35,925 bases of DNA from Actinomycetota bacterium (lineage in GTDB: Bacteria; Actinomycetota; UBA4738; HRBIN12), in the NCBI GenBank assembly GCA_046082745.1, contig JBJTYK010000074.1, forward strand, positions 1-35,925, written 5' to 3'. Shown piece after piece: positions 19,520 through 34,000 of the stretch. The position numbers were made by a program, and so were the translations under genes. Below the pieces are notes generated by a model. That model made no database searches, was not told where the DNA came from, and saw only the letters and a list, made by a program, of their open reading frames with translations. The first letter of the stretch is position 1. Each line of letters begins with the position of its first letter.

Positions 19520-20539
19520 ATGCGGCACCGCACCTCTGGCCGACGGGAGCGGCGGCGGGCCGTGGCCACGGTGGTCGTCGGCGCGCTCGCCCTCGCAGCA
19601 GTGCTTCCGGGCATCGCGGCGGCGCTCACGACCGACGACGCCCCGACGACGTGGAACTGGCAGCTCGACGCCCAGGGCTCCGACGACGAGCCGAACCAGA
19701 AGGACCTCACCGCCCACGCCGCGGCGCTCGGGCAGGACGACACGTTCTGGGTGACCTGGAAGTGGGACGACACCCGCTTCCCCGGTAACAACAGCGGGGA
19801 CGCATGTTCGCTCTTCGACACGGCGCCCTTCGACGCGCTCGTCGATGCCGCGGTCTGCGTCACCGTGAAGGGGATCGACGCGGAACAGGTGCGCACATCG
19901 CCGCGGGTCTACCTCTGCGACGACGACTCGGAGGACCGCTGCTTCGGGGCTCGGCTCGTCGGTTCCGGCTCCGACCTCTCGACCGCGTGCTCGGTCGATT
20001 CGACCGCGCCGGAGGCCTTCGGCGGGAGCACGGCCGACACCCAGGCGATCTGCCACGTCGACCTCACTGAGATCGACGCGGGGAGCACCCCGATCCTGCG
20101 CAACACCTGCTCGTACCCGTCGCAGGAACCGAACTCCGACCCATCGGACTGCGTCCTCGCCGGCGTCGTGCCGCCGATCGACACGACGCCCTCGACCACG
20201 GCCGAGACCACGGCGATCCTCGCCGACGACGTGGCGCTGCCGTCGAACGCGGTGGGAACCGTGGTGTTCCGGCTCTACGCGGACGATCCAGCCGCCGAGA
20301 CCGAGACGCTCTGCGACACGCTCCTGTACGAGTCGGGCGAGATCGCCGTGGCGGACGGGACGGCGTCGTCGATGGATGACCCGAACCTCGCCGAGCCGGG
20401 CCCGTACACCGAGACGATCACGGCGGACACCACCTACAGCTGGGAGGCGCACTTCACGTCGGGGACGGACTTCTATCTCGACGCCGACGCGCCCTGCGGC
20501 GAGACGACGACCGTCACCGTCGCGACCGTCGCGCCCTGA
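19520..20539 (+). CDS. Secreted Cys-rich, Asp/Thr-rich protein of unknown function
   Basis: N-terminal RRERRR n-region, a hydrophobic core and AAA-L cleavage-like site. The mature part has 9 Cys. It has high GC3, a good SD and a strong downstream hairpin. No family recognised with confidence. Confidence 0.65.
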   Translation: MRHRTSGRRERRRAVATVVVGALALAAVLPGIAAALTTDDAPTTWNWQLDAQGSDDEPNQKDLTAHAAALGQDDTFWVTWKWDDTRFPGNNSGDACSLFDTAPFDALVDAAVCVTVKGIDAEQVRTSPRVYLCDDDSEDRCFGARLVGSGSDLSTACSVDSTAPEAFGGSTADTQAICHVDLTEIDAGSTPILRNTCSYPSQEPNSDPSDCVLAGVVPPIDTTPSTTAETTAILADDVALPSNAVGTVVFRLYADDPAAETETLCDTLLYESGEIAVADGTASSMDDPNLAEPGPYTETITADTTYSWEAHFTSGTDFYLDADAPCGETTTVTVATVAP

Positions 20540-20599: not shown

Positions 20600-20902
20600 T
20601 CAGGAACCGATCGACGGGAGTTCATCCCGCCGGATCTCCTCCACGTTCACGTCGCGGCGGGTGAGCACCCGCACGGAGGCCACGAACCGCGCGGGCCGGA
20701 ACATGTCCCAGACCCACGCGTCGGTCATCCGGACCTCGACCCATCCCTCGGGTGTTCGCTCGACCTCGACCGCGTTCGCGAGGTAGAAGCGCCGCTCCGT
20801 CTCGACGACGTGGGAGAACATCCCGACGACGTCGCGGTACTCGCGGTAGAGCTCGAGTTCGCGCTCCTCCTCGAACCGCTCGACGTCGTCCTCGTCCGGC
20901 AT
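20600..20902 (-). CDS. DUF2469-family conserved actinobacterial protein
   Basis: [48 protein letters not shown]... (100 aa). This resembles the conserved small protein adjacent to rnhB in actinobacteria. Confidence 0.8.
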
Positions 20903-20974
20903 CGCGTCACTGTACCCGCCCGGGCCGACCCGGCGGCCCTTGCGCTGCGCCGCGCGACCCGCCACGCTCCCCAC

Positions 20975-21682
20975 ATGCCGACGCGCCCGACCCTCCGCGT
21001 GGAACGCGGGCTCCTCGCCGCGGGTCACGCGCTCGTCGCGGGCGCCGACGAGGTCGGGCGCGGCGCGCTCGCGGGACCCGTCACGGCCGGCGTCGTCCTC
21101 CTCGATGCCGCGCGGAAGGCCCCCGATGGCCTGCGCGACAGCAAGCTCCTGTCCCCCGCGCGTCGCGAAGGACTCGTCCCGGAGATCGAGGCGTGGGCGA
21201 GCGCGTCCGCCGTCGGCCACGCGAGCGCCGCGGAGATCGATCACTACGGCATCCTCCGGGCGCTCCGGCTCGCGGGCGAGCGGGCGTTGGCGCAGTTGTC
21301 CGACCTTCCGGAGGTCGTGCTCCTCGACGGGAATCACGACTGGCTCCACCGTCCCGCCCGCATCGGCACCTCGCCGCTCGCCGCCGCCGCGCCGCGCGTG
21401 GAACTGCGCGTGCGCGCCGACCTCGAGTGCGCGAGCGCGGCGGCGGCGAGCGTCCTCGCGAAGGTGGCCCGCGACGCGATCATGACCGACCTGGCTCGAG
21501 CGTTCCCCGCGTACGGGTGGGACGAGAACCGCGGATACGCGAGCGACGGCCACCGGCGCGCGATCGCGCAGCACGGGCCGTGCGAGCACCACCGGAAGAC
21601 GTGGCAGCTCCTGCCGAGCGGGGTGCAGGGTGAGCTGTGGGCGGGACGCGGACCGGACCCGGGTCCGCCGGGCGCCGCCTAG
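20975..21682 (+). CDS. rnhB: Ribonuclease HII
   Basis: Start MPTRPTL (ATG 20975), then [32 protein letters not shown] and [10 protein letters not shown]. Confidence 0.9.
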
Positions 21683-21686
21683 TCGC

Positions 21687-22247
21687 TCAGGACTCGGACG
21701 GCGCTTCCTCGGCGGCGACCTCGGGGGCGGCTGCCTCAGGGGTCGCGGCCTCGTCGGACGCTCCGCCCTCGGGCGTCGCGGTCGCCTCCGCCTCGGCCTC
21801 GGCAGCGGCCTGCGCCTCCGCCTCCGCGATGCGACGCTCGGCCTCCGCCTCGGCCTGCCGCGCCGCCTCGAGCGCCGCGGCCTCGGCCGCGATCTCCTCG
21901 GGCGAACGCCGGCGCTCGCGGATCCGCGCCTTGCGGCCGGTGAGCTCGCGAAGGTAGTAGAGCTTCGCGCGACGGACCTTCCCCGGCACGACGACCTCGA
22001 ACTTCGCGATCGTCGGCGAATGGACCGGGAACGTGCGCTCCACCCCGACGCCGAAGGAGATCTTGCGGACCGTGAAGGTCTCCTGCAGGCCCCCGCCCTG
22101 GCGGCGGATCACGACGCCCTGGAAGATCTGGACGCGCTCCTTGCCGCCCTCGACGACGCGGGCGTGGACGCGCACGGTGTCCCCCGGACGGAACGACGGG
22201 ATGTCGGTGCGCAGGTACGCCTGGTCGACGATGTCGGTGGGGTTCAT
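21687..22247 (-). CDS. rplS: 50S ribosomal protein L19 with a ~70-aa Ala/Glu-rich C-terminal extension
   Basis: [73 protein letters not shown], followed by [36 protein letters not shown]... Confidence 0.93.
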
Positions 22248-22290
22248 GGGAGCGGGAATGGTAGCAGGGCGCCCCGGGACGCCCGGGGGG

Positions 22291-22965
22291 TCAGCGCTCC
22301 CCGAGGAGGTCGGGGCGGTTCCTGCGGGTCTTCGCGAGTGCGGCCTCCCGGCGCCAGCGATCGACCTCGGCGTGGTTGCCGGACAGGAGCACCTCGGGCA
22401 CGGCCATCCCGCGGAACTCGGCGGGTCGCGTGTAGTGCGGGTGGTCGAGGATGCCGTCCTCGAAGGAGTCCCGCCGGTGCGACTCCTCACGGCCGATCAC
22501 GCCCGGCAGCAGCCGCGTCACCGCCTCGATGAGGACGAGCGCGGGGACCTCGCCGCCGGAGAGCACGTAGTCGCCGATCGAGACCTCCTCGGCCGGAAGC
22601 CCCTCGACGACGCGCTCGTCGATGCCCTCGTACCGCCCGCAGATGACGACGAGCGCGGGCTCGGCCGCGAGCTCGCGCACGAGGGCCTGGTCGAGGCGTC
22701 GGCCCGCGGGCGACAGGAGGATCGTCCGGCCCGCCCGCGGGCCGAGCGCCTCGACCGTCGCGAAGATCGGCTCCGGCTTCATCACCATCCCCGGTCCCCC
22801 ACCGAACGGCTCGTCGTCGACCTGCCGGTGGCGGTCCTCGGTGTGGTCGCGCGGGTCGTGGAGGCGCACCTCGACGAGCCCCCGGTCGATCGCTCGCCCG
22901 AGGAGGCTCTCGGCGAGCGCGCCGCGGAGGATGCCCGGGAAGATCGTCACGACGTCGATGCGCAC
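22291..22965 (-). CDS. trmD: tRNA (guanine37-N1)-methyltransferase
   Basis: [11 protein letters not shown]..., [28 protein letters not shown] and [14 protein letters not shown] start at 22965. Confidence 0.95.
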
Positions 22966-22971
22966 GCCCCG

Positions 22972-22977
22972 AGGCTA
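22972..22977 (-). promoter_or_regulatory. Candidate -10 box (TAGCCT) placed for a leaderless trmD transcript
   Basis: The minus strand reads TAGCCT-cggggc-GTG, so the 7th nt after the hexamer is the G of the trmD start codon. No SD is present. Motif match only. Confidence 0.35.
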
Positions 22978-23026
22978 CCGGGGGCCGCTTGCCTCGGCGA
23001 GCGGGCGACGGGAGGATGCGCCGACG

Positions 23027-25273
23027 ATGGGAACGGTTGCCGCGACCCTCCGACGCCTCACCCGCCGTCGGCGCGACGACGTCTACGACCGCATCCGGGA
23101 CGCGATCCGGGGCGCGCACCGCGTCCCCCGCGGCACGCGCCCCGGCGACCACCTCGCGCTCACCGCGCCGACGATCCGCATCGAGCGACCGGGCGGCGTC
23201 TGGGCGTCGGTCGACGCAGCGCTCCGCCCCGAGGCGTGGCGACCGCGGCTCGCCGACGGCGTCGAGGTCGTGGACTTCCCCTCCCGGCGCGGTCGCGCCC
23301 ACGCGATCATCGCGAGCCCCGATCGCCTCGAGCACTTCCGCGTCGAACCCTGGGAGGCGCGGCTCGCGCGACGGATGGACGGCACGCGGAGCGTCCAGGA
23401 CCTCATCGTCGAGCAGCTCGAGGAGGAGGGTGAGTTCGACGCGGCCGCCGTGACGCGACTCGTGACGCTCCTGCGCAGCGAGGACCTCCTCGCGACCCGC
23501 GCGGTGAACCTCCGGAAGGTCATCCGGCGCGCGCTCGACCCGACCCCGACGCGCCGCGCCCGCGTCTCGGAGTTCGGCCGGAGCCTGCGGGTGGACTGGG
23601 CGGGCGTCGAGCGGCTCACCCGATTCCTCCACCGCACCGTCCTCCGCCACGCCTTCCGCCCGGCGGCGGTCCTCGCCTGCGGGATCGTCTCCGCCGCGGG
23701 GTTCGCGGCGTTCACCGTGCTCTCCGAATCCCATCGCTTCCGCCTCGGCGACCCGTCCTACGCGGAGATCGCGGTGCTCCTCATCCTCGCCTTCTTCCTC
23801 ACCGCGGCGCACGAGCTCGGCCACGCGACGGCGCTCGTCCACTACGACCGGCGGGTCATCAGCTCCGGCGTGGAACTCCTCTTCGCGACGCCGACGTTCT
23901 TCGTGGACGCCTCCGACGCGCAGACGCTGCCGAAGCGCGAGCGCATCGTCCAGGCGTTCGCCGGTCCGTGGGCCGAGCTCGTGATGGCGGGGACCGCGTC
24001 GCTCATCGTGTTCGCCGCACCCGACGCCCCCGCCGCCGTCACGCTCTACCGGTTCGCCCTGTCGAACTACTTCTTCATCTTCCAGAACTTCATCCCGCTG
24101 CTGCGTCTCGACGGGTACTGGATGCTCTCCGACGCGATCGACGAGGCGGACCTGCGCGGCGCGTCGTTCCAGTTCGTCCGCCACGACCTCTGGTACCGAC
24201 TCCGGCACCGGGAACCCATCCGCCCGCAGGAATGGCTCCTCGTCGCCTTCGCGGTCCTCGGGCCGCTCTACGGGGTCTACGCCTTCTACGCGGCGGTCCT
24301 CGCCTGGGACCTCGGTCAGGTCGTCGGGGACCTCTGGGCGAACGGCGCGCCGTCGCGGCTCCTCCTCGCGCTCCTCGTCCTCGTCTTCGCCGGGCCGGTG
24401 ATCCGCGCGGGCTTCGACCTCCTGCGAACGCTTTTCCGCCGCCTCCGCGCGCTCGCCGCGCGCGTGCGCTTCCGCCTCCAGCGGAGCTGGCGCGCGGAGG
24501 CGGCGGAGCTCGTCGGGGCCCTGCCGGGCTTCGACGGACTCGGCGACGACGCGCGCGCGGCGATCGAACGCGCGGTGCGCCTCGGGACGTACGCTCCCGG
24601 CCAACCCGTCTTCCGCCAGGGCGACCGCCCGACGGCGTTCTACGTCGTGCGCAGCGGCGAGGTCGCCGTCGAGGACCTCGATCCGCACACCGGCGAGGTC
24701 CGGGTCCTGCGGACCCTCGGTCGCGGGGCCTCGTTCGGGGAACTCGGGCTCCTCGACATGGCGGCGCGCTCGGCGACCGTGCGCGCGACCGCGGAGACGC
24801 AGCTCTTCGAGGTCGGCAAGAGCGCGTTCGACCGGCTCCTGGCCGACACGATCGAGGCGCCACGGTTCGCGCCGTCGATGCAGAACTTCGCGGAGCTCCG
24901 GAGCCTGCCGACGTTCCGCCACCTGCCGACGGAGCGGCTCGCCGAGGTCCTCGAGCGCGGTGGCTGGGCGGGCTTCGAGACCGGCGACGTCATCGTCCAG
25001 CAGGGCGAGCCGGCCGACGCCTTCTACGTCATCGCCCGGGGTCAGGCGGTCGTCGACATCGACGGCGAGTTCGTCCGCGCGCTCGGCCAGGGCGCCTACT
25101 TCGGCGAGATCGCCCTCCTGCACGACGTGCCCCGGACCGCGACCGTCACCGCCGCGAGCGCGATGCGGGTCTTCCGGCTCGACCGCGAGGGGTTCGAAGG
25201 GGTCATCGCCGGCCAGTTCGACCGCGGGTTCCCCACTCACTACCGACGTTCCCTGCGGGACATGGAGCACTGA
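23027..25273 (+). CDS. Membrane M50/site-2-protease-like protein with a PqqD/RRE-like N-domain and two C-terminal cyclic-nucleotide-binding domains (paralog A, 748 aa)
   Basis: GGGAGGA SD lies 10 nt before ATG 23027. Motifs are HELGH (23810-23824) inside a TM helix, NFIPLLRLDG, and two CAP-type cNMP motifs (FGELGLLDMAARSATVRA and FGEIALLHDVPRTATVTA). The N-terminal MDGTRSVQDLIVEQLEEEG...LLRSEDLL segment is PqqD-like. Confidence 0.82.
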   Translation: MGTVAATLRRLTRRRRDDVYDRIRDAIRGAHRVPRGTRPGDHLALTAPTIRIERPGGVWASVDAALRPEAWRPRLADGVEVVDFPSRRGRAHAIIASPDRLEHFRVEPWEARLARRMDGTRSVQDLIVEQLEEEGEFDAAAVTRLVTLLRSEDLLATRAVNLRKVIRRALDPTPTRRARVSEFGRSLRVDWAGVERLTRFLHRTVLRHAFRPAAVLACGIVSAAGFAAFTVLSESHRFRLGDPSYAEIAVLLILAFFLTAAHELGHATALVHYDRRVISSGVELLFATPTFFVDASDAQTLPKRERIVQAFAGPWAELVMAGTASLIVFAAPDAPAAVTLYRFALSNYFFIFQNFIPLLRLDGYWMLSDAIDEADLRGASFQFVRHDLWYRLRHREPIRPQEWLLVAFAVLGPLYGVYAFYAAVLAWDLGQVVGDLWANGAPSRLLLALLVLVFAGPVIRAGFDLLRTLFRRLRALAARVRFRLQRSWRAEAAELVGALPGFDGLGDDARAAIERAVRLGTYAPGQPVFRQGDRPTAFYVVRSGEVAVEDLDPHTGEVRVLRTLGRGASFGELGLLDMAARSATVRATAETQLFEVGKSAFDRLLADTIEAPRFAPSMQNFAELRSLPTFRHLPTERLAEVLERGGWAGFETGDVIVQQGEPADAFYVIARGQAVVDIDGEFVRALGQGAYFGEIALLHDVPRTATVTAASAMRVFRLDREGFEGVIAGQFDRGFPTHYRRSLRDMEH

Positions 25274-25370
25274 CCGTGGCGGCCCCCGGTCCGATGTCCC
25301 GGGAGGTTGCGCGGGCGCGCCCTCGGGAGCAGGATGCGCCGACGGGCCGACCGGACAGGAGGGGAACCGC

Positions 25371-27671
25371 GTGGAGTGGCTGATCCTCGGCTTCGCGTGT
25401 GCGGCGACCTACGTCATCGCCCGTGACTTCGTCCGCGAACGTCGCTGGCGCGCCTCCCGACCGGACATCGCCGGGGCGATCGTCGCAGGACTCGCCGCCG
25501 CGGCACCCGCGACCGCCGCCGCGCCGCTCCGCGACCTCCTCGGCGACCAGGGCGGCCTCGAGGTCGGCGGCGAGCCCGGGGGGCTCTGGGCGGCGATGGC
25601 GGAGCGGATCGACCCGTCGTCGTGGTTCCCGCAGCTCGCCGCGGGCGTCGAGGTCATGGAGTTCCCCTCGCGCTCGGGCAACGACTACGCGCTCGTGCGC
25701 AACCCCGAGGGCGACTCGCACTACACGCTCGAGATCTGGGAGGCCCGACTCGCGCAGCTCATGGACGGGACCCGGTCGATCAAGGACCTCATCCTCCTGC
25801 GCCTCGAGGAGGAGGGCGACCTCGACCCCGCCGCGATCGCCGCGCTCATCACGATGCTCCGCGTCGAGGGCCTCCTCGAGCCCCGCGCCGTGAACGCGGA
25901 GGTCCTCCTGCGGGAGCGCATCGACCCGTCCTCGCCCGGCCGCAGGAAGCTGAAGGAGTTCGCGAAGACGCTCCGCCTGCGCTGGATGGGCGCCGAGCGC
26001 TTCACCCGCTGGGCCTACGGGACGGGCCTCCGCTTCGCGTGGTCGAGGCCCGGCGCCCTCGCGTGCACAGCCGTCGCGGCCATCGGGATGGTGCTCTTCG
26101 TGCTCACGGTCCGTTCCGGGACATTCTCCTTCAACTACGACCGCGCCCCCATCGAGACCACGCTGCTCATCGTCCTCAGCTTCTTCCTCACCTTCTGCCA
26201 CGAACTCGCGCACGCGATGGCCCTCGTCCACAACCGGCGACGGGTGATCTCGGCGGGCTTCCTCGTGTTCTTCGGCTCTCCGGCGTTCTTCGTCGACGCG
26301 TCGGACGGGCAGATGATCCCCCGGCGGGGGCGCATCTTCCAGGCGTTCGCCGGTCCCTTCGCCGAGCTCGTCCTCTGCGGCGTCGCCTCCGTGTTCCTCT
26401 TCCTGTTCCCGGAGTCCCCGGCCGCCCCGCTCCTCTACCGGTTCAACTTCGTGGGCTACATCGTGATCTTCGAGAACCTCATCCCGCTCATCAAGCTCGA
26501 CGGGTATTGGATCCTGAGCGACCTCATCGGCGAACCGACGCTCCGCGAGGTCTCGACCCAGTACCTCCGGCACGAGCTCTGGGACCGTATCCGCAACCGC
26601 AAGGGCCTCACGCCGTACGAATGGTCGCTCGTCGTGTTCGCCCTGCTGGGGACGGCGTTCGCGATCTCGATGACCTGGATCGGCCTCGTCTTCTGGCAGC
26701 AGCTGTTCGGCGAGATCGTCGCGAACCTCTGGCGGGGCGGTTGGGGCACCCGCCTCCTGCTCATCGCGTTCGTCCTCGTGTTCGGCGGACCGCTCATCCG
26801 CGCCGGCATCGACGCCCTCCGGGCGGTCGTTCGGCGCGCGAAGGCGGGGGTCGCGGCGATCCGCTTCCGCCTCGAACAGTCGTGGCGGGTCGAGGCGGCG
26901 GAACTCATCGGCGCGCTCCCGGCGTTCGGCGAGCTCGACGAGGACGTCCTCTCCGACCTCGCCGGTCGGGTCCAACTCGATCAGTTCTCCGCGGGTCAGC
27001 CCGTGTTCCGCCAGGGCGACCAGCCCGAGGCGTTCTACGTCGTGCGCTCCGGCGCGGTCGCCGTCGAGGACGTCGATCCCGACACCGGGAACACCCGGAT
27101 CCTGCGCACGCTCGGGCGGGGCGACTCGTTCGGGGAACTCGGGCTCCTCGACATGGCCCCCCGTTCCGCCACGATCCGCGCCATCGAGGAAACGCAGCTC
27201 TTCGTCGTCGGCAAGAGCGCCTTCGACCGGCTGCTCGCGGACGCGATCGAGGCACCGAAGTTCGCGCCCTCGATGCAGAACTTCGCGGAACTCCGGGCGC
27301 TGCCGACGTTCCGACGGCTGGCGACCGATCGCCTCGCCGAGGTCCTCGAGCACGGCGAGTGGCGGACGTTCGTCGCGGGCGACGTCATCATCGAGCAGGG
27401 CGAGCCCGGCGACGCCTTCTACGCCATCCAGCGCGGCCAGGCGGACGTCGCCGTGGACGGCGAGTTCGTGCGGACCCTCGGCCAGGGCTCGTACTTCGGC
27501 GAGCTCGCGCTCCTGAACGACACCCCGCGCACGGCGACCGTCACCGCCGCGAGCGCGATGCGGGTCTTCCGGCTCGACCGAGAGGGGTTCGAGCAGGTCG
27601 TGGCGGAACAGTTCGAGGGTAGCGCCATCCCGGCGCACTACCGACGCTCGATGCGCGACATGGAGCACTGA
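25371..27671 (+). CDS. Paralog B of the PqqD-like / M50 / 2x cNMP-binding membrane protein (766 aa), with an extra N-terminal hydrophobic segment
   Basis: AGGAGGGG SD before GTG 25371. Motifs are HELAH, NLIPLIKLDG, FGELGLLDMAPRSATIRA and FGELALLNDTPRTATVTA. It is collinear with paralog A and ends with the same RDMEH. Confidence 0.82.
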   Translation: MEWLILGFACAATYVIARDFVRERRWRASRPDIAGAIVAGLAAAAPATAAAPLRDLLGDQGGLEVGGEPGGLWAAMAERIDPSSWFPQLAAGVEVMEFPSRSGNDYALVRNPEGDSHYTLEIWEARLAQLMDGTRSIKDLILLRLEEEGDLDPAAIAALITMLRVEGLLEPRAVNAEVLLRERIDPSSPGRRKLKEFAKTLRLRWMGAERFTRWAYGTGLRFAWSRPGALACTAVAAIGMVLFVLTVRSGTFSFNYDRAPIETTLLIVLSFFLTFCHELAHAMALVHNRRRVISAGFLVFFGSPAFFVDASDGQMIPRRGRIFQAFAGPFAELVLCGVASVFLFLFPESPAAPLLYRFNFVGYIVIFENLIPLIKLDGYWILSDLIGEPTLREVSTQYLRHELWDRIRNRKGLTPYEWSLVVFALLGTAFAISMTWIGLVFWQQLFGEIVANLWRGGWGTRLLLIAFVLVFGGPLIRAGIDALRAVVRRAKAGVAAIRFRLEQSWRVEAAELIGALPAFGELDEDVLSDLAGRVQLDQFSAGQPVFRQGDQPEAFYVVRSGAVAVEDVDPDTGNTRILRTLGRGDSFGELGLLDMAPRSATIRAIEETQLFVVGKSAFDRLLADAIEAPKFAPSMQNFAELRALPTFRRLATDRLAEVLEHGEWRTFVAGDVIIEQGEPGDAFYAIQRGQADVAVDGEFVRTLGQGSYFGELALLNDTPRTATVTAASAMRVFRLDREGFEQVVAEQFEGSAIPAHYRRSMRDMEH

Positions 27672-27682
27672 GGGAGGACGAC

Positions 27683-27895
27683 ATGGATTGCTGGCACTGC
27701 AGGACCACCGCGGTCGGGGCATGCCGCTTCTGCGGTCGAGGGGTCTGCGAGGACCACGCCCAGACCCAGCCGTACGTGCTCGAGCTCTTCAAGGGAAGCG
27801 GCCCCACCCGGGCGCTCGTCGTGGAGGACGCCCTGTTCTGCGGCGCCTGCACGCCGAGGCCCGACCCGCTCGACCTGCCCGAGCTCGACGTGTGA
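27683..27895 (+). CDS. Small Cys-rich zinc-ribbon protein (70 aa), DUF2180-like by recollection
   Basis: MDCWHCRTTAVGACRFCGRGVCEDH ... LFCGAC contains three CxxC-type pairs. GGGAGGA SD lies 5 nt before the ATG, and the start is 12 nt after the paralog B stop. Confidence 0.6.
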   Translation: MDCWHCRTTAVGACRFCGRGVCEDHAQTQPYVLELFKGSGPTRALVVEDALFCGACTPRPDPLDLPELDV

Positions 27896-27906
27896 CGGGA
27901 GTCACG
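27891..27906. promoter_or_regulatory. Crp-type operator, TGTGA-N6-TCACG (9 of 10 consensus positions)
   Basis: tgtgacgggagtcacg overlaps the zinc-ribbon stop codon. Its centre is about 112 nt upstream of the peptide-1 ATG. Confidence 0.5.
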
Positions 27907-28010
27907 CGGACCCCGTGATGCCGGCGGCGCGCGACAGCGGCCCGCTGGCACAGGATGTGGCGGTACCCGTCCGGGAGTCGGCGGGGAGGACGAGCGGAAG
28001 CGAGGGAGCG

Positions 28011-28142
28011 ATGGCCGGAGCGAAGAAGGTCCAGCCGAAGAAGGCTGCGTCGAAGAAGGCCGCGCCGAAGCGCGCGGCGACCAAGAGCACTCGGGAGAGC
28101 CTGCGGGGCGGCAAGAAGTCGATGGCGATCCTCCCGGTCTAG
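28011..28142 (+). CDS. Lys-rich small peptide 1 (43 aa), the most divergent copy
   Basis: MAGAKKVQPKKAASKKAAPKRAATKSTRESLRGGKKSMAILPV. High GC3 and its own terminator. The SD (GAGGGAG) is only 2 nt from the ATG, so expression is less certain. Confidence 0.55.
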   Translation: MAGAKKVQPKKAASKKAAPKRAATKSTRESLRGGKKSMAILPV

Positions 28143-28165
28143 AAGTCGGACCGCCGTGCGGGATA

Positions 28166-28195
28166 GGGGCCGGGCCCGCACGGGCCCGGCCCCTT
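28166..28195 (+). terminator. Intrinsic-terminator-like hairpin after peptide 1
   Basis: GGGGCCGGGCCCG-ca-CGGGCCCGGCCCC forms a 13-bp stem, followed by TTCC. Confidence 0.6.
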
Positions 28196-28222
28196 CCGCT
28201 CCCCCCCGCCAGGCACGGCCGT

Positions 28223-28238
28223 TGTGACGCCCGTCACA
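28223..28238. promoter_or_regulatory. Perfect Crp/CAP consensus palindrome TGTGA-N6-TCACA
   Basis: ttgtgacgcccgtcaca lies in the 248-nt gap before peptide genes 2-4. A CAGAGT -10 candidate at 28260-28265 would centre the site at -41.5. Additional TCACA (28257-28261) and TGTGA (28270-28274) half-sites lie just downstream. Confidence 0.65.
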
Positions 28239-28390
28239 GTCCACCGGCACCGGCCATCACAGAGTGGGTTGTGACCGAGGGCACCCCCCGGGAGTGACCC
28301 GCGATGCGGCGGGACTCGGTTGCGCGGGGGAGGATGCCCGAGTCAGGCGCACCGACGAGCAGCGAGGATCGGAGAGGGGAGGCGGAGCAC

Positions 28391-28513
28391 ATGGCGGAGA
28401 AGAAGAAGGTCCAGCCGAAGAGGGCGGGCAGTTCCGCGGCCGGCGCGAAGAAGGTCGCGAAGAAGTCCACCCGCGAGAGCCTGCGAGCCGCCAAGGGCAG
28501 GCCAATCGCGTAG
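28391..28513 (+). CDS. Lys-rich small peptide 2 (40 aa)
   Basis: MAEKKKVQPKRAGSSAAGAKKVAKKSTRESLRAAKGRPIA. GGAGG SD upstream and high GC3 (AAG, GTC and GCG codons). Confidence 0.7.
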   Translation: MAEKKKVQPKRAGSSAAGAKKVAKKSTRESLRAAKGRPIA

Positions 28514-28552
28514 CCAGCGCAGCCACGACGACTCGGAAGGAGGGGGAACCAC

Positions 28553-28672
28553 ATGGCAGAGAAGAAGAAGGTCCAGCCGAAGAAGGCGACGGGCGCCGCT
28601 GCCGGCAAGAAGAAGGTCGCGAAGAAGTCCACCCGCGAGAGCCTGCGAGCCACTCGCTCCAAGATCGGCTAG
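28553..28672 (+). CDS. Lys-rich small peptide 3 (39 aa)
   Basis: MAEKKKVQPKKATGAAAGKKKVAKKSTRESLRATRSKIG. AAGGAGG SD lies 9 nt upstream. It is below the size cut-off of the ORF track and was found by hand. Confidence 0.7.
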   Translation: MAEKKKVQPKKATGAAAGKKKVAKKSTRESLRATRSKIG

Positions 28673-28731
28673 CGGCTCCGACGGCAACCAGGACACGAGC
28701 CTCACGAACTCGACGGAAGGAGGGAAACCAC

Positions 28732-28851
28732 ATGGCGGAGAAGAAGAAGGTCCAGCCGAAGAAGGCGGGCAGTTCCGCGGCCGGCGCGAAGAAGGTCGCG
28801 AAGAAGGCCACCCGCGAGAGCCTCAGCGCGAAGGTCGGGAAGGTGATCTAG
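28732..28851 (+). CDS. Lys-rich small peptide 4 (39 aa)
   Basis: MAEKKKVQPKKAGSSAAGAKKVAKKATRESLSAKVGKVI. AAGGAGG SD lies 8 nt upstream, and a terminator hairpin follows. Confidence 0.7.
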   Translation: MAEKKKVQPKKAGSSAAGAKKVAKKATRESLSAKVGKVI

Positions 28852-28869
28852 GTCCTCTGGAGCGAAGCG

Positions 28870-28906
28870 AACGGCGGGCCCGCAAGGGCCCGCCGTTCCT
28901 GTTTCC
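28870..28906 (+). terminator. Intrinsic terminator after the peptide array
   Basis: AACGGCGGGCCC-gcaa-GGGCCCGCCGTT forms a 12-bp stem, followed by CCTGTTTCC. Confidence 0.7.
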
Positions 28907-28938
28907 CCGGCCGTGTGGCCCCGCCACCCCTGCCGCGC

Positions 28939-28944
28939 TAGGCT
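28939..28944 (+). promoter_or_regulatory. Candidate -10 box (TAGGCT) for a near-leaderless crp-like transcript
   Basis: gcTAGGCTccgcc ends 9 nt before ATG 28954, which has no SD. Nearly the same string (gcTAGACTccgcc) lies upstream of rpsB on the minus strand (11938-11943). Confidence 0.3.
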
Positions 28945-28953
28945 CCGCCCCTG

Positions 28954-29658
28954 ATGTCGCCCTTGGACCAGACCGCGGTCGTCGAGAAGGCCATGACCCA
29001 GTCCCCCACCTTCGTGGGGGTCCCCCGCGCGCACGTGAAGGACTTCGCCGCGCAGGGCCGGGTCCGCGCCTACCGCCGAGGCACGTACCTCTGCCAGCAG
29101 GGCGACGAGGCCGACCGGGTCTACTTCCTCGTGAAGGGCCGGGTCGAGATCAGCTCGATCTCCCTCACCGGCAACCGGATCCTCCACGCGACGGTCGACC
29201 AGCCCCAATTCCTCGGGGAGCTCCCCGTGCTCGGCGAGATGGATCGCACGGCGGACCTCCTCGCCCTGGAGGACAGCGAGGTCTGGAGCATCGCGGCGGG
29301 CCGGTTCCTCGACTTCGTGACCTCGGAGCCGTCCGCCGCGCGCCAGGTGCTCGCGGCGCTCGCCCGCCAGGTCCGCGAGCACGAATCGTTCGTGGACGAC
29401 CTCCTGTTCCTCGACCTGAAGGGCCGGGTCGCCAAGCGCCTCCTCCAGATGGGCACCTCGACGCTCTCGGAGCTCCCCGAGGACGGCTCCTCGATCCCGG
29501 CCGTCACCCACGCGGACCTCGCGAGCCTGTGCGGCGGGAGCCGGGAGAACGTCTCGCGGATCCTCTCGGACCTCCAGCGCCGGGGCGTCGTCTCACGCGA
29601 GGGCTCGCGCTACGTCCTCGCGAAGGTCTCGTACCTCGCGCGGCTCGCCGCGCTCTAG
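28954..29658 (+). CDS. Crp/Fnr-family cNMP-binding transcriptional regulator
   Basis: A cNMP-binding barrel (FLGELPVLGEMDRTADLLA) plus a C-terminal HTH. GRVAKRLLQMG and HADLASLCGGSRENVSRILSDLQRRG resemble mycobacterial Crp. The recognition helix is R-E-x-V-x-R, as in E. coli CRP (RETVGR). The alternative start ATG near 28993 is not excluded. Confidence 0.85.
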   Translation: MSPLDQTAVVEKAMTQSPTFVGVPRAHVKDFAAQGRVRAYRRGTYLCQQGDEADRVYFLVKGRVEISSISLTGNRILHATVDQPQFLGELPVLGEMDRTADLLALEDSEVWSIAAGRFLDFVTSEPSAARQVLAALARQVREHESFVDDLLFLDLKGRVAKRLLQMGTSTLSELPEDGSSIPAVTHADLASLCGGSRENVSRILSDLQRRGVVSREGSRYVLAKVSYLARLAAL

Positions 29659-30170
29659 CCTTCGTCGGGGGCGGTGAGCCCCGGCAGGTCTCGGACGACG
29701 ATCCGCCGCTGCCCGACGTCCACGGAGACGAGCACGTCGCGGAGCACCGGCACGAGGGTCTCCTCCCCCGCCCGCACGACGCTCCAGACGTCGTTCGCCG
29801 GGGTGTGGATGACATCGGAAAGCACGCCGAGGTCGCGGCCGGCGTCGGTCGCGACCGCGCACCCGACGAGGTCGTGGTCCCACCAGGAGCCCTCGGGAAG
29901 CGGCGGCGAGGACGACGCCGGCACGACGAGGGTCTTCCCCGCGAGGGCCTTCGCGACCTCGCGGTCGGCGACGCCCGCGAACGTGACGAGCAGGAGCCCG
30001 CGGTGGCGGCGGGCGGCGGTCACGGTGAGCGGGCGGCCGTCCTCGAGGTGGACCGTCGCGCCGGGGTCGAAGCGGCTGGCGACGTCGGTGAGGACGACGA
30101 CCGCGAGTTCGCCCCGCACCCCGTGGGGGCGGCTGATGCGGCCGACCGCGACGGTCGGCTCCGCGGTCAT
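29655..30170 (-). CDS. rimM: 16S rRNA processing protein RimM
   Basis: VAVGRISRPHGVRGELAV..., a PRC-barrel C-terminus, and operon position after the KH protein. Its stop shares CTAG with the convergent crp-like stop. Confidence 0.9.
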   Translation of the reverse strand: MTAEPTVAVGRISRPHGVRGELAVVVLTDVASRFDPGATVHLEDGRPLTVTAARRHRGLLLVTFAGVADREVAKALAGKTLVVPASSSPPLPEGSWWDHDLVGCAVATDAGRDLGVLSDVIHTPANDVWSVVRAGEETLVPVLRDVLVSVDVGQRRIVVRDLPGLTAPDEG

Positions 30171-30406
30171 CCCTCCGGGTCGAGGATCTCGACGGAGACG
30201 CGGCGGTCGTCGCGGATCGCGGCGGCCTTCACGACGCTCCGCATCGCGCGGGCGATGCGGCCGCCCTTGCCGATGATCCGACCCATGTCGGCCTCGGCGA
30301 AGGAGAGCTGGAGGAGGGTGCCGCGGTCGTCCTGCACCTCGGTCACGCGGACGGCGTCGGGCTCATCCGCGAGTTGCTTCGCGATGAACTCGAGGAGTTC
30401 CCTCAC
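30167..30406 (-). CDS. KH-domain RNA-binding protein (YlqC/UPF0109 type)
   Basis: GTG start giving [59 protein letters not shown], which contains GKGG. Conserved position between rpsP and rimM. Both junctions are 4-nt overlaps. Confidence 0.85.
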
Positions 30407-30927
30407 GCCTCGGGCTGGGGCTCGTCGGCGGACGTCTCGGCGGCGGGGGCCTCGACCTGCGGTTCCTCGACCGGGGCGGCTTCTGCGGCCTCGGCCGTCG
30501 CGGCCTCCGCGGCCGCTGCCTCGGCTGCGGCGGCGGCCTTCGCTGCCTCCGCCTCGGCCTTCGCGGCGGATGCGGCGGCGGCCTCGGCTGCTGCGGCGGC
30601 CTTCGCGCCGACGCGCGGCGGGCGCTTGCGCGCGCGCTCGCCGCCACGGGGCTTGCCGGCCTCGGGGCGCTCGGCGACGAACTTCGGCCAGATGCCGACC
30701 TTGTCCATGAGGTTGCGGACGGTCTCGCTCGGCTGGGCGCCGGTGCGGAGCCAGTGGAGGGCGCGGGCCTCGTCGATCTCGATCCGCGAGGGCTCGTCGA
30801 GGGGGTGGTAGCGGCCGATGTTCTCGATGAAGCGGCCGTCGCGGGGGGAGCGCTGGTCGGCGACCACGACGCGGTAGAAGGGGCGCTTGTTCGCCCCGAG
30901 CCGCCGAAGCCTGATCCTCGTGGTCAT
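30403..30927 (-). CDS. rpsP: 30S ribosomal protein S16 with an Ala/Glu-rich C-terminal extension
   Basis: [43 protein letters not shown], followed by a long [35 protein letters not shown] tail. Confidence 0.95.
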
Positions 30928-30965
30928 CCGGTCTCCTCGCGCCCGCGGGCGCCTTCGGGAACCCT

Positions 30966-30987
30966 CCGCGGGCGGGACCGCCCGCGG
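30966..30987 (-). terminator. GC hairpin downstream of smc, in the rpsP upstream region
   Basis: CCGCGGGCGG-ga-CCGCCCGCGG forms a 10-bp perfect stem. There is no clear U-tract, so function is uncertain. Confidence 0.4.
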
Positions 30988-31041
30988 GAGCCCCGATGAT
31001 AGCCGCAGGGTCCTCCGCCCGACACCCGCCGGGCGGGCGGC

Positions 31042-34000
31042 CTAGGCCCGGGTCCCGCCCCCGGGGACGAGGTCGGCCGGGGAGTCCGGTGCCTTCGCCT
31101 CGTCCATCGCCTGACAGACGACCTTCGTCGTGCCGTCCTTCGACATCGAGACCCCGTAGAGCATCCGGGCGATCTCCATCGTGCGCTTCTGGTGGGTCAC
31201 GATGAGGACCTGGGAGTCCGCGGCGAACCCACCGACGAGCTTCAGGAACCGGTGGAGGTTCACGTCGTCGAGCGCGGGCTCGACCTCGTCCATGAGGTAG
31301 AAGGGCGAGGGCCGCGACCGGAAGATCGCGAACAGGAACGCCATCGAGGTGAGCGCGCGCTCCCCGCCCGACAGGAGCGAGATGCGCTTCATGCGCTTGC
31401 CGCCCGGCCGGGCCTCGATCTCGATGCCGGTGTTCAGGAGATCGGTCGGCTCGGTCGCGACGAGTCGCCCCTCCCCGCCCGGGAAGAGTTCGGCGAAGAG
31501 CCGCTCGAACTCCGCCGAGACGTCGCGGTAGGCCGAGGCGAACGTCTCGACGATCTCGTCCTCGATGCGGCGGATCACCTGGAGGAGGTCGCGGCGGGCC
31601 TTGCGGATGTCGTCGAGCTCGCGCGCGAGGAAGTCGTGACGCTCCTGGAGCGCCTCGAACTCGCCGCCCGCGAGGAGGTTCACGCGGCCGAGCAGGCCGA
31701 GCCGGCGCTGCACGAGTTCGGCCTTGCGCTCGAGCGTGCCGACGTTGTCGTCGTCGCGGAGGCGTCCGAGGACGGCCTCGGGGTCCTCGCCGTGGCCCTC
31801 GCGGATCAGGCGTTCGGCGTCGCGCATCCGGCGCTCGAGGTCGGCGCGGGCGCGGTCGTCGTCCTCGTAGGACTCGCGGAGCCGGTCGAGTTCCATCGAG
31901 GCCTCGCGCCAGCGGCGGTTCACGTCGGCCTCTGCCTCCATGGCCTGCGACTGCGCGGTCGCCGCGGCGGCACGCGCGGCGGCGGCGGCGTCGGTGGCGG
32001 CCGCAGCGGTCTCGAGGGCCGCCTCCGCCGCCGCGCGCGCCGCCCCCTCGCGGTCGAGCGCGGCCGCGAGCGACGTCGGATCGTCGGCACCGAGGCGTCC
32101 GAGTTCGGCCTCGAGGCCGGAGATGCGAGCGGCGAGGCCCGCCGCGTCGCGACGCAGCGTCTCGACGGCGACCCGCGCGGCGACCGGGGCCTCGGGCTCG
32201 GCGGGCAGTGCCGGGAGTTCCTCGGCGCGGGGCGCCGCGGACTCGAGTCGGTCGCGCCAGGTGGCCGCAGCCTCCTCCATGCCGGCGAGTCGCTGACCGA
32301 GGAGTTCCTCCTCGCGCGCGAGCGCGGCGGCGTCGGATTCGAGCTTCCCGAGGCGGTCGGCCGCCGCGGTGATCGCGGCGTCGGAGCCCTCGATCGCGGC
32401 GTCGGCGTCGGCGAGCCCCGCGACGGCGACGTCGAGCCGGCGACGCAGCGGCGTGAGCGCCCCGCGCGCGCCCGCGACCTCGTGCTCGGCGACGTCGAGT
32501 TCGCGGTCGAGGTCCTCGATGCGCTCGGCGCGGTCGGGGACGGTGCGGATCGTGACGGGGCCGAGGAGCAGGCCGTCGCGCGTGACGAACGAGGCGCGCC
32601 CGTGCTGCGCGGCCTTCCCGACGGCCTCTTCGACCGAGTCGGCGAGGTAGACGTCGGACAGGAGCGTCGCGACGATCCCGCGGACCGGCGCGTCGGCGTC
32701 GACGACGGACAGGAGCGGGCGCTCTCCCTCGAGGACGAGCGCCGCACCGCCGCCGCCGGCGATCGCGATCGTCGCGCCGCCCGCGCCGGGCGCGTCGCGG
32801 AGCGCCGCCGCGCCGTCGTCGTAGACGACCGCGTCGACGAGCGGGCCGAGCGCCGCGGCGAGGGCGGCTTCCCAGCCGGACCTCGCGCGGACCATGTCGC
32901 CGAGCAGCCCGAGGGCGGGGGTGGGTCGGCGCGCGAGGAACCGGGCGCCGTCGCTCGCGCGGAGGTCCTCGAGACGCGCCTTCGCGACGTCGCGGCGGTT
33001 CTCGGCGACGCGCAGGCGCTCCTCGAGGGTGGCGATCTGTTCGGCCAGGGCGGCGCGCTCCCCCTCGATCGTCCCGCGGCGCCCGGCGAGCGGCGCCGAC
33101 TCCGCGTCGAGCCGTTCGGCATCGGCGCGGGCGTCGTCGATCGCCCGCTCGGCGGCGGCGCGACGGGTGCGGACGTCCTCGAGGTCGGCCTCGACGCGGG
33201 CCCGCTCGCGGTCGGAGGCGGCGAGCGATTGGCGGAGCATCTCGATCTCGGCCCGTCGCGCCGCCGCCTCCTCGAGGAGCCTGCGGCGCTCGTCCGCGGC
33301 CAGTCGGTGTTCCTGGGTCGCCTGGCGGAACGCGCGCTCGGCCTCCTCGAGCGCGATCTCGGCTCCGCCGAGATCGCGCTGCGCGGTCGCGAGCGACTCG
33401 CGCGTCGCGCGGAGGTCGCCCTCGAGGGATTCGATCCGCACCCCGCGGGTGGACTCGGCGGCCAGACGCTGGCGCGCGTCGGCCTCGGCCGCGACGGCGC
33501 GGCGCAGTTCGGCCTCGGCGGCCGACCGCGCCTCCTGGGCCGCGGCGAGCGCATCCTCGGCCTCCTGGAGCGCCCACGTCGTGCGCGCGCGCTCGTCGGC
33601 GACCGTGCCGACGCGCTCGCTCAGGTCGTCGAGCTGTTCGCGCGCCTGCGCGCGCGCCGCCTGGCCGGCGTCCCAGCCGCCCTCGCGGGCGGTGTGCTCG
33701 GCGCGGAGCGCGCGCAGGCGCGCCCCCGCGAGCAGGACGGCGACGGCCTCGGCCTCGGCGCTCAGCTCCTCGTGGCGCTTCGCCATGTCGGCCTGCTGGC
33801 GGAGCGGCTTCAGCTGGCGGCGGAGCTCGGCGAGGACGTCCTGGAGGCGGAGGAGGTCCTGGTCGAGGCCCGCGAGCTTGCGCTCCGACCGCTCCTTGCG
33901 GCGGCGGTGCTTCGCGATGCCCGCGGCCTCCTCGATGTAGGTGCGGCGATCCTCCGGCCGCGCGTTCAGGACCTCCTCGAGCTGGCCCTGGCCGACGACC

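Follow-up and report, generated by a model that had tools for sequence, protein, structure and literature searches.

A candidate cyclic-nucleotide-controlled peptide-processing cassette antisense to the rimM-trmD operon of Actinomycetota

Why would a second-messenger module lie antisense inside a highly conserved ribosome-biogenesis operon? This question is posed by a metagenome contig of an Actinomycetota bacterium (JBJTYK010000074.1, actinobacterial, 73% GC), the whole of which, 35,925 nucleotides, is hereafter called the window, and in which the operon genes rimM and trmD are split by an island of opposite-strand genes rich in cyclic nucleoside monophosphate (cNMP)-binding domains. A preliminary description of this DNA had proposed that the island encodes a cNMP-gated membrane protease acting on, or with, Crp-induced small cationic peptides. 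Our analysis supports that proposal: the N-terminal domain of the protease was modelled as a recognition element for peptides that are made by ribosomes and modified post-translationally (RiPP recognition element, RRE), and among curated families an RRE-fused leader peptidase comes closest; proteolysis, gating and activation by Crp are inferences. We give about an even chance to the reading that the island is a self-contained, cNMP-controlled peptide-processing cassette, in which Crp and cNMP would control transcription, an RRE-bearing site-2 protease (S2P) would remove the leader and cNMP would gate the protease.

From the list of open reading frames (ORFs), their translations and Pfam searches, we counted eight genes in the trmD-rimM gap, all on the plus strand, and not the nine claimed earlier (the list behind that claim itself gave eight). 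They are, with lengths in amino acids (aa):

23027-25273, plus strand: gene A, 748 aa; predicted RRE, M50/S2P core and tandem cNMP-binding domains; start codon picked by its ribosome-binding site
25371-27671, plus strand: gene B, 766 aa; N-terminal transmembrane (TM) helix TM0, predicted RRE, six-TM S2P core, linker helix and tandem cNMP-binding domains
27683-27895, plus strand: 70-aa zinc protein; 7 Cys, 1 His, acidic PRPDPxDLPELD C-terminus, weak DUF2180 match
28011-28142, plus strand: peptide 1, 43 aa, net charge +12, tail GGKKSMAILPV
28391-28513, plus strand: peptide 2, 40 aa, net charge +11, in direct-repeat family D1 (105 nt)
28553-28672, plus strand: peptide 3, 39 aa, net charge +12, from the ORF list and repeat search
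28732-28851, plus strand: peptide 4, 39 aa, net charge +10, from the repeat search and leader comparison
28954-29658, plus strand: Crp/Fnr regulator, 234 aa; Pfam cNMP_binding, HTH_Crp_2 and Crp

Genes A and B, which are paralogues (55% identical), carry two PF00027 domains each (for gene A, cNMP_binding twice at 5.9e-41); with the single domain of the Crp regulator, this gives the five cNMP-binding domains reported before. Their match to Peptidase_M50 was sub-threshold in Pfam. Gene A contains HExxH and NxxPxxxLDG, gene B contains HExxH at residues 277-281 and LDG at 376-378, and H277, E278, H281, N369, P372, D377 and G378 were invariant among 20 protease sequences. The product of gene B carries the NCBI name 'cyclic nucleotide-binding domain-containing protein [Actinomycetota bacterium]'. 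For both genes, the top NCBIfam match was daptide_HExxH (NF041824, 1.1e-45), which covered profile positions 2-370 of 379 with scores of 156.4 and 148.4 bits, below the curated equivalog cutoff of 300; a second, weak match was to NF058609, the YydH/LiaK epipeptide protease (1e-8).

In an AlphaFold2 model of gene B (predicted local distance difference test, pLDDT, 73.8), TM0 is followed by a beta3-alpha3 domain at about residues 94-165 and then by six TM helices, with a re-entrant hairpin placed between TM2 and TM3. A long linker helix leads on to the tandem cNMP-binding domains, which resembled the PKA-R/PKG pair in Foldseek. The paralogue encoded by gene A lacks the N-terminal TM helix. With the full-length model as query, Foldseek matched PKA/PKG cNMP-binding domains only; to test for an RRE, the N-terminal 123 residues were modelled again on their own (pLDDT 79.6) and showed beta3-alpha3 topology. 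All ten top PDB matches of this model were leader-binding RREs, namely those of TbiB1 (5V1U/5V1V), LynD (4V1T/4V1V), lasso B1 (6JX3), TruD (4BS9) and TigE (8VPO), several of which, including TbiB1, were solved with bound leader; TglHI ranked 16. Target-normalised TM-scores were 0.67-0.70 for stand-alone RREs, and Foldseek E-values were only 4e-3 to 6e-2. The PqqD-like N-terminus that had been proposed was thus recovered as a modelled fold but not as an above-threshold Pfam call, since single-sequence matches to PqqD and PaaA_N were sub-threshold only. The predicted fold supports the assignment of the N-terminal domain, at about residues 88-170 of gene B in the model, as an RRE, and an RRE fused to a protease implies a specific peptide ligand.

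The small genes that could supply such a ligand had been described as four tandem Lys-rich genes of 39-43 aa, as was confirmed; a strong GGAGG-type ribosome-binding site precedes each of the four. Across the loci described below, the peptides were 34-84 aa long with net charges of +4 to +25 and almost no aromatic or Cys residues. A leader-like part takes up their first 26-31 residues and consists of MA(E/D)KK(I/V)xPK, a variable spacer and A(A/T)RV(T/S)K, the last of which is replaced by TRESL in the window and in locus L001; M1, P9 and R28 were invariant in an alignment of 37 leaders from more than 30 loci. The tails that follow are basic and hypervariable and, in most genomes, consist of tandem repeats with a genome-specific unit (KKTRVGA, KKVSR, KKLAR, KKTLA, KKQLA, RVK, RETK, KRTT, KKM, MKR, SATR, QHK, VQK, VQN, ARN, TRQ, GRGLK or TLKAR; KKQLA, for example, occurs five times in one multi-unit tail). 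Units identical in amino acids but different at synonymous sites were found in L002 (KKTRVGA, seven units, or eight if the first, KKIRVGA, is counted), L032 (TRQ, ten units) and L010 (ARN, eight units), which shows, at the sequence level, that the peptide ORFs are translated and under purifying selection. Some arrays were exact at the DNA level, which points to recent slippage. The window lineage and L001 instead harbor four or five tandem peptide genes with short, non-repeated tails, of which the peptide 1 tail is kept in the L001 orthologue and the remainder differ.

The window peptides matched nothing in Pfam, NCBIfam or PADLOC, including the precursor profiles Frankia_peptide (PF14407) and NF038399. 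A peptide profile search retrieved 186 relatives, all of 37-70 aa, and the few that were named in their source were called 'hypothetical'; the peptides appear to form a separate, unannotated family. An enrichment of TrmD-dependent codons (CGG, CCN, CUN) in the peptides was also considered; the raw counts, taken without a background comparison, reflect ordinary high-GC usage, and the idea was dropped but not disproved.

The 70-aa zinc protein lies between the protease genes and the peptides. Its match to DUF2180 (PF09947) reached 25.8 bits against a gathering cutoff of 22.2, and membership is marginal because many homologues lack a precomputed match. The family consensus is MDCWHCRRTAVGxCRFCGRGxCEDHxxTxPYxLELF...ALVVEDALxCGxCxPRPDPxDLPELD, and homologues were 75-88% identical where the protease was about 50% identical. 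A profile search of 1.84 billion representative proteins found only 165 clusters at 50% identity, nearly all of about 70 aa. The zinc protein evolves under very strong constraint and accompanies the protease as an obligate partner; it may assist the basic peptides as an adaptor or chaperone, or it may regulate the protease.

As had been described, the island contains a Crp/Fnr regulator (nearest to it among solved structures were GlxR, 4BYY, and M. tuberculosis CRP, 3D0S, at about 2e-22), and two Crp-type operators precede the peptide genes. The elements of this region are:

27891-27906, no strand: Crp-type palindrome 1, TGTGACGGGAGTCACG, centred 112.5 nt upstream of the start codon of peptide 1
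28165-28194, plus strand: perfect 14-bp GC hairpin (inverted repeat I5), -43.7 kcal/mol, z = -3.5
28223-28238, no strand: Crp-type palindrome 2, TGTGACGCCCGTCACA, perfect, centre 160.5 nt upstream of the peptide 2 start codon
28869-28898, plus strand: perfect 13-bp GC hairpin (inverted repeat I6), -37.3 kcal/mol, z = -5.1

Allowing at most one mismatch, TGTGA-N6-TCACA matched only these two sites in 35.9 kb, compared with 0.09 expected from shuffled sequences. The stop codon of the zinc protein falls inside site 1. The window thus combines a regulator with a cNMP-binding domain and a Crp-type helix-turn-helix with TGTGA-N6-TCACA in the target promoter region, and its peptides are arranged in two units, site 1-peptide 1-hairpin and site 2-peptides 2-4-hairpin. 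The hairpins are likely the terminators of the peptide 1 and the peptide 2-4 transcription units, respectively. A terminator scan had missed both because they lack a U-tract, and they were found by repeat search and folding; folding also indicated that the spacers among peptides 2-4 are unstructured.

We then compared these sites across the fetched loci. Palindromes scoring at least 9/10 numbered 51 in about 27 kb of spacer between the zinc-protein and Crp genes, compared with 19 in the other 820 kb fetched, an approximately 80-fold enrichment per base. When loci were aligned on the site, the palindrome alone was conserved, with the extended consensus tGTGACG-N2-CGTCACa at or just after the zinc-protein stop codon and with its centre 85-190 nt upstream of the first peptide start codon. 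By this comparison, the palindrome is a phylogenetic footprint.

The preliminary description would have failed had the components not occurred together beyond this genome; they clearly do. Homologues of gene B numbered more than 600, all from metagenomes or metagenome-assembled genomes (MAGs), and Microflora Danica samples were the source of many of the contigs. We fetched 90 loci in total and counted co-occurrence in 47 Actinomycetota-type loci. The zinc protein directly followed the protease in all 46 loci with room downstream, a peptide positive for the leader hidden Markov model followed in 38 of 46, and Crp followed in 41 of 44. Manual reading adds about five peptide loci (L016, L022, L030, L032 and L043) to these 38, and reverse look-ups from peptides P0441 and P0505 recovered the same cassette. 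Two paralogous proteases were found only in the window lineage and L001; the other loci have a single protease. The zinc-protein and peptide families are widespread in soil metagenomes and absent from the best-matching cultured genomes that were examined.

The cassette occupies two conserved contexts. In the first, it lies between trmD and rimM or, in L004, L036 and L040, on the other side of trmD; in the second, it lies between a PrmC-like methyltransferase region and moaA/moaB. Approximately 20 of 47 loci, the three beyond trmD included, are at the rpsP-KH-rimM-trmD-rplS operon, to which the cassette is always antisense where located there. The split of rimM and trmD that had been described before is therefore real in the window and in part of the family but does not extend to the rest. 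Neither context in the related loci included a tailoring enzyme, exporter or mobility gene. The radical-SAM gene in the vicinity is no such candidate: it encodes MoaA, adjoins MoCF_biosynth/XdhC genes and lies on the opposite strand.

At about 30% protease identity, the pair of protease and zinc protein is kept in Chloroflexota (L044-L049, L052, L055 and L056). The zinc-protein gene of L047 and of L052 is followed by a gene that exceeds curated cutoffs for RiPP-type precursors: 51 and 71.5 bits with NF038399 (Os1348 NHLP clan, cutoff 40) and 50.8 with PF14407 (cutoff 48). In L052, the C-terminal region encoded by this precursor-like gene is repetitive and rich in Gly/Ala, and a perfect Crp site precedes the gene; L049 likewise has a perfect Crp site after the zinc-protein gene, where the contig stops before any downstream gene. 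According to the published description, Os1348 is an antibiotic-related small precursor in Pseudomonas. The precursors of these families are thus comparable to those of the cassette in their slot after the protease and zinc protein in Chloroflexota and in their repetitive C-terminal regions, whereas the window peptides, as noted above, fit neither profile. That recognised precursor families are paired independently with the protease and zinc protein gives the strongest indirect support for the view that these two mature the downstream peptides. A different arrangement was seen in the Anaerolineales locus L045 (5051-6331), in which the gene after the zinc protein encodes a cNMP-binding domain fused to a PP2C/SpoIIE-type phosphatase, with no peptide there.

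On the basis of these results, we propose the following order of events. The Crp regulator, with cNMP, would bind GTGACG-N2-CGTCAC and control transcription of the peptide genes. The cytoplasmic RRE of the membrane protease would dock the peptide leader, and the six-TM HExxH/LDG core would cut near the leader-tail junction, at about R28, to free the tail. The C-terminal tandem cNMP-binding domains, which occupy the position of the CBS domain of SpoIVFB, would make cleavage cNMP-dependent, and one messenger would then govern both the synthesis and the maturation of the peptides. Candidate roles of the released polycations are those of membrane-active or secreted peptides, or of intracellular nucleic-acid or ribosome binders.

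The nearest characterized parallel is the daptide system. The daptide paper reports that MpaP is an RRE fused N-terminally to an intramembrane S2P and that it removes the leader. The cassette protease shares with MpaP (NF041824) the order of an RRE and a six-TM HExxH/LDG S2P core, along a profile matched nearly full-length; in both cases, one or more small precursor genes with a conserved N-terminal and a variable C-terminal part adjoin the protease, and the host phylum is Actinomycetota. However, the cassette protease adds a C-terminal tandem cNMP-binding module, and the MpaB, C, D and M tailoring genes (DUF-RRE, oxidative decarboxylase, aminotransferase and methyltransferase) are absent from the cassette in the window and related loci. 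The leader is basic (MAEKKITPK) in the cassette and acidic (ELExMEAP) in daptides, the cassette peptides lack the invariant C-terminal Thr, and the cassette has its own Crp regulator and zinc protein. Because the score cutoff is not reached and the daptide tailoring genes and precursor features are absent, we do not regard the cassette as a daptide system. By analogy, the cassette protease would work like the daptide RRE-S2P leader peptidase, to which it is distantly related.

A second parallel concerns the protease core. SpoIVFB trims a short N-terminal pro-sequence off a non-transmembrane substrate, and S2Ps of this type share with the cassette model the six TM helices, the TM2-TM3 re-entrant hairpin, the interdomain linker and a cytoplasmic ligand-binding domain. 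Unlike the SpoIVFB/mjS2P group, the cassette protease has tandem cNMP-binding domains at the CBS position, where no CBS domain was found. It also differs from SpoIVFB in its added N-terminal RRE, in its presumed substrates, which are 40-aa polycations and not a sigma factor, and in that the cassette contains no BofA- or SpoIVFA-type inhibitors. The M50 proteases of epipeptide and pearlin systems (EpeP/YydH and TglG/TmoG) are likewise membrane proteases that mature small ribosomal peptides; however, those systems have radical-SAM or PEARL-type tailoring and ABC exporters and are without cNMP-binding domains, and the cassette has none of those enzymes or exporters. The Crp regulator, an ordinary protein of its type, resembles actinobacterial Crp/GlxR in its domain architecture and TGTGA-N6-TCACA half-sites and departs from it as a cassette-linked, not obviously global paralogue, with the extended GTGACG-N2-CGTCAC and a site that overlaps the upstream stop codon. 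Literature searches on DUF2180, on cNMP-binding domains with S2P and RRE, and in RRE-peptidase surveys found no description of the cassette, the zinc protein or the peptides.

Several observations weigh against the peptide-processing reading. The scores for the daptide peptidase family (148-156 bits) are half the curated cutoff of 300, and the full-length model of gene B is of moderate confidence (predicted template-modelling score 0.49). Although a precursor with a conserved leader and variable core adjoins an RRE-containing enzyme, as is general for RiPP clusters, no tailoring enzyme besides the protease and no exporter occurs in either conserved context, so that the cassette is unlike a canonical RiPP cluster. 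Classic S2P substrates are hydrophobic, and the peptides are not. In L034 and L039, the protease and zinc protein are present but neither a peptide nor Crp could be recognised. The site-aligned loci contained no conserved -10 element at a fixed distance, and the sites would fit activation or repression by Crp alike; the role of the zinc protein is unexplained by the model; and the case is built entirely on metagenome assemblies.

The best-surviving alternative, which we consider unlikely but by no means negligible, is that the peptides are themselves the end products. They would be polycations akin to protamine or histone H1, induced by Crp-cNMP (on starvation, for example) and binding nucleic acid or ribosomes, while the protease and zinc protein would degrade them and so reset the state or would act on another membrane substrate. 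The charge of +4 to +25, the low-complexity composition and the tandem-repeat tails of genome-specific period would suit such a role, and bacterial nucleoid proteins such as chlamydial Hc2 and actinobacterial HU carry tails of Lys/Ala repeats that resemble those of the peptides. The absence of an exporter and the location of approximately 20 of 47 loci in the rpsP-KH-rimM-trmD-rplS neighbourhood, the distant non-actinobacterial L050 included, are also in keeping with it; however, more than half of the loci lie away from that operon. Moreover, the protease-fused RRE implies a specific peptide ligand, a leader of constant length with invariant P9 and R28 would be unnecessary for a simple polycation, and the Chloroflexota protease and zinc protein are paired with non-basic RiPP-type precursors.

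In a rather improbable variant, the tails would be multi-copy cores, from which the gated RRE-S2P protease, possibly with a further protease, would free many identical cationic units of 3-8 residues that act on ribosomes or the nucleoid as a cAMP-triggered growth-arrest or hibernation switch of uncultured soil Actinomycetota. If so, the cassette would be a bacterial counterpart of eukaryotic multi-core propeptides for which no tailoring enzymes are needed, and the window lineage would use several single-tail genes instead. Polycations that act on ribosomes or the nucleoid would also explain the repeated antisense embedding in the rpsP-rimM-trmD-rplS operon. 

We regard as very unlikely a Pycsar-type anti-phage or abortive-infection module, in which a cyclic nucleotide made upon infection would activate the protease and release membrane-damaging cationic peptides. 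Hypervariable tails could mirror an arms race and the cNMP-binding domains match PADLOC Pycsar effector models; however, those matches are limited to this generic domain, the zinc protein and peptides gave none, and no PycC gene is present in the island. The two stable housekeeping contexts contain no mobility or defence-island genes, and a Crp-type factor with a conserved operator points to physiological signalling. Cyclase genes do occur near some cassettes, but their products are not PycC: they are large, multidomain class III proteins that contain AAA and TPR domains. Finally, it is scarcely credible that the small ORFs encode no functional peptides and serve in cis as leaders or attenuators, tuning the downstream Crp gene by sensing Lys/Arg tRNA charging or TrmD-dependent decoding. 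They do contain Lys and Arg codon runs and lie directly upstream of Crp and next to trmD. However, strong hairpins end the window peptide units before Crp, and repeat units hold the residue constant and change the codon (in a single array, CGC, CGG, CGA, CGT and AGG all encode Arg), which is the reverse of the pattern expected for a codon sensor, while the leader motifs are conserved at the protein level in the 37 aligned leaders and each of the four window peptides has its own ribosome-binding site.

Under the peptide-processing reading, the cassette would belong to a known kind of system, the RRE-guided proteolytic maturation of small ribosomal peptides; the second-messenger input, the obligate zinc partner, the precursor family and the lack of tailoring chemistry would be new. 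Among peptide-maturation systems, it would be the first whose leader peptidase, in addition to transcription, is gated directly by a cyclic nucleotide, and its protease would be the first S2P family under the regulation of cNMP-binding domains. Two unannotated families are defined, the 70-aa zinc protein and the polycationic peptides with tandem-repeat tails, and the cassette is a tractable four-gene unit for heterologous reconstitution.

The earlier statement that cyclase, transporter, modification and mobility genes are absent holds for the island, where we found no cyclase, transporter, tailoring enzyme or mobility gene, but not for all relatives, since L002, L020, L032 and L050 have class III cyclase genes within the cassette or next to it, a finding in favour of the peptide-processing reading. 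In L002 (13771-15108), an alpha/beta-hydrolase and class III cyclase (Guanylate_cyc) gene is located between Crp and rimM of the orthologous island. Large cyclase-AAA-TPR genes flank the cassette in L020, L032 and L050.

The remaining question is the relation of the cassette to its surroundings. The flanking genes in the window are:

22291-22965, minus strand: trmD, left flank of the island (Pfam tRNA_m1G_MT, PF01746, 3.8e-66)
29655-30170, minus strand: rimM, right flank of the island (Pfam RimM, PF01782, and PRC_RimM)
30403-30927, minus strand: rpsP (translation and Pfam)

Beyond rimM, rpsP, a KH-domain gene and smc follow on the minus strand, and beyond trmD lies rplS; the identity and order of rpsP-KH-rimM-trmD-rplS were confirmed with Pfam in the window genes and in the called genes of related contigs. 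These identities and coordinates agree with the description of the rimM-trmD pair as split by opposite-strand genes. A 61-bp spacer (22966-23026) separates the divergent starts of trmD and gene A, and the convergent coding regions of Crp and rimM overlap by 4 bp (29655-29658), from which it follows that the island and the ribosomal operon must be transcribed head-on into each other. The base composition had been described as backbone-like, and indeed the GC fraction was 0.68-0.75 in the island, compared with 0.69-0.79 in the rest of the contig, so that the island is not distinct. Rfam gave no match in 21000-31500, and a sigma-70 promoter scan found nothing.

Since the cassette occurs on either side of trmD, always antisense, and a distant relative (L050) lies near rpsP-rimM-trmD, there is room for a functional link between the cassette and the ribosomal operon, such as transcriptional interference with trmD-rplS. 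In M. tuberculosis, the gene lppW lies on the opposite strand between trmD and rplS, so that an insertion in this operon is not without precedent. The relative in L050 (3189-13285) is a protease homologue of 1111 aa and about 30% identity from a non-actinobacterial MAG, located less than 5 kb from rpsP-rimM-trmD in a locus with no zinc-protein match; its linkage to the operon is either independent or ancient.

Other loci depart from the common pattern. In L013 (11109-12563), genes for an HxlR-type regulator and an HtrA-like trypsin-PDZ protease are inserted after the zinc-protein gene, ahead of the Crp sites and peptide, and the HtrA-like protein is a candidate second protease acting on the basic tails. 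The protease ORF is fragmented in L042 (9278-12660), L031 (9932-12279) and L039 (9845-12075) by frameshifts or assembly errors. The peptide of L042 is atypical (70 aa, Cys-containing, with a GRGPQDR repeat), and L042 may be a decaying copy of the cassette. L022 (JBHGAT010000061.1) contains a complete cassette of the actinobacterial type (44% protease identity, high GC) in a contig that was binned as 'Candidatus Velamenicoccus archaeovorus' (Omnitrophota) and is probably mis-binned.

Elsewhere in the window, a 339-aa ORF at 19520-20539 (plus strand) has a signal-peptide-like N-terminus and no Pfam match. RNase HII is encoded at 20810-21682 on the plus strand, with no signal-peptidase gene (lepB) between rplS and rnhB, whereas rplS-lepB-rnhB are all on the minus strand in L002, L003, L084 and L090; the rplS-rnhB neighbourhood has undergone local rearrangement in the window lineage and L001. 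The ribosomal proteins L19 (21687-22300, minus strand) and S16 (30403-30927, minus strand) of the window carry long Ala/Glu-rich C-terminal extensions of approximately 70-90 extra residues.

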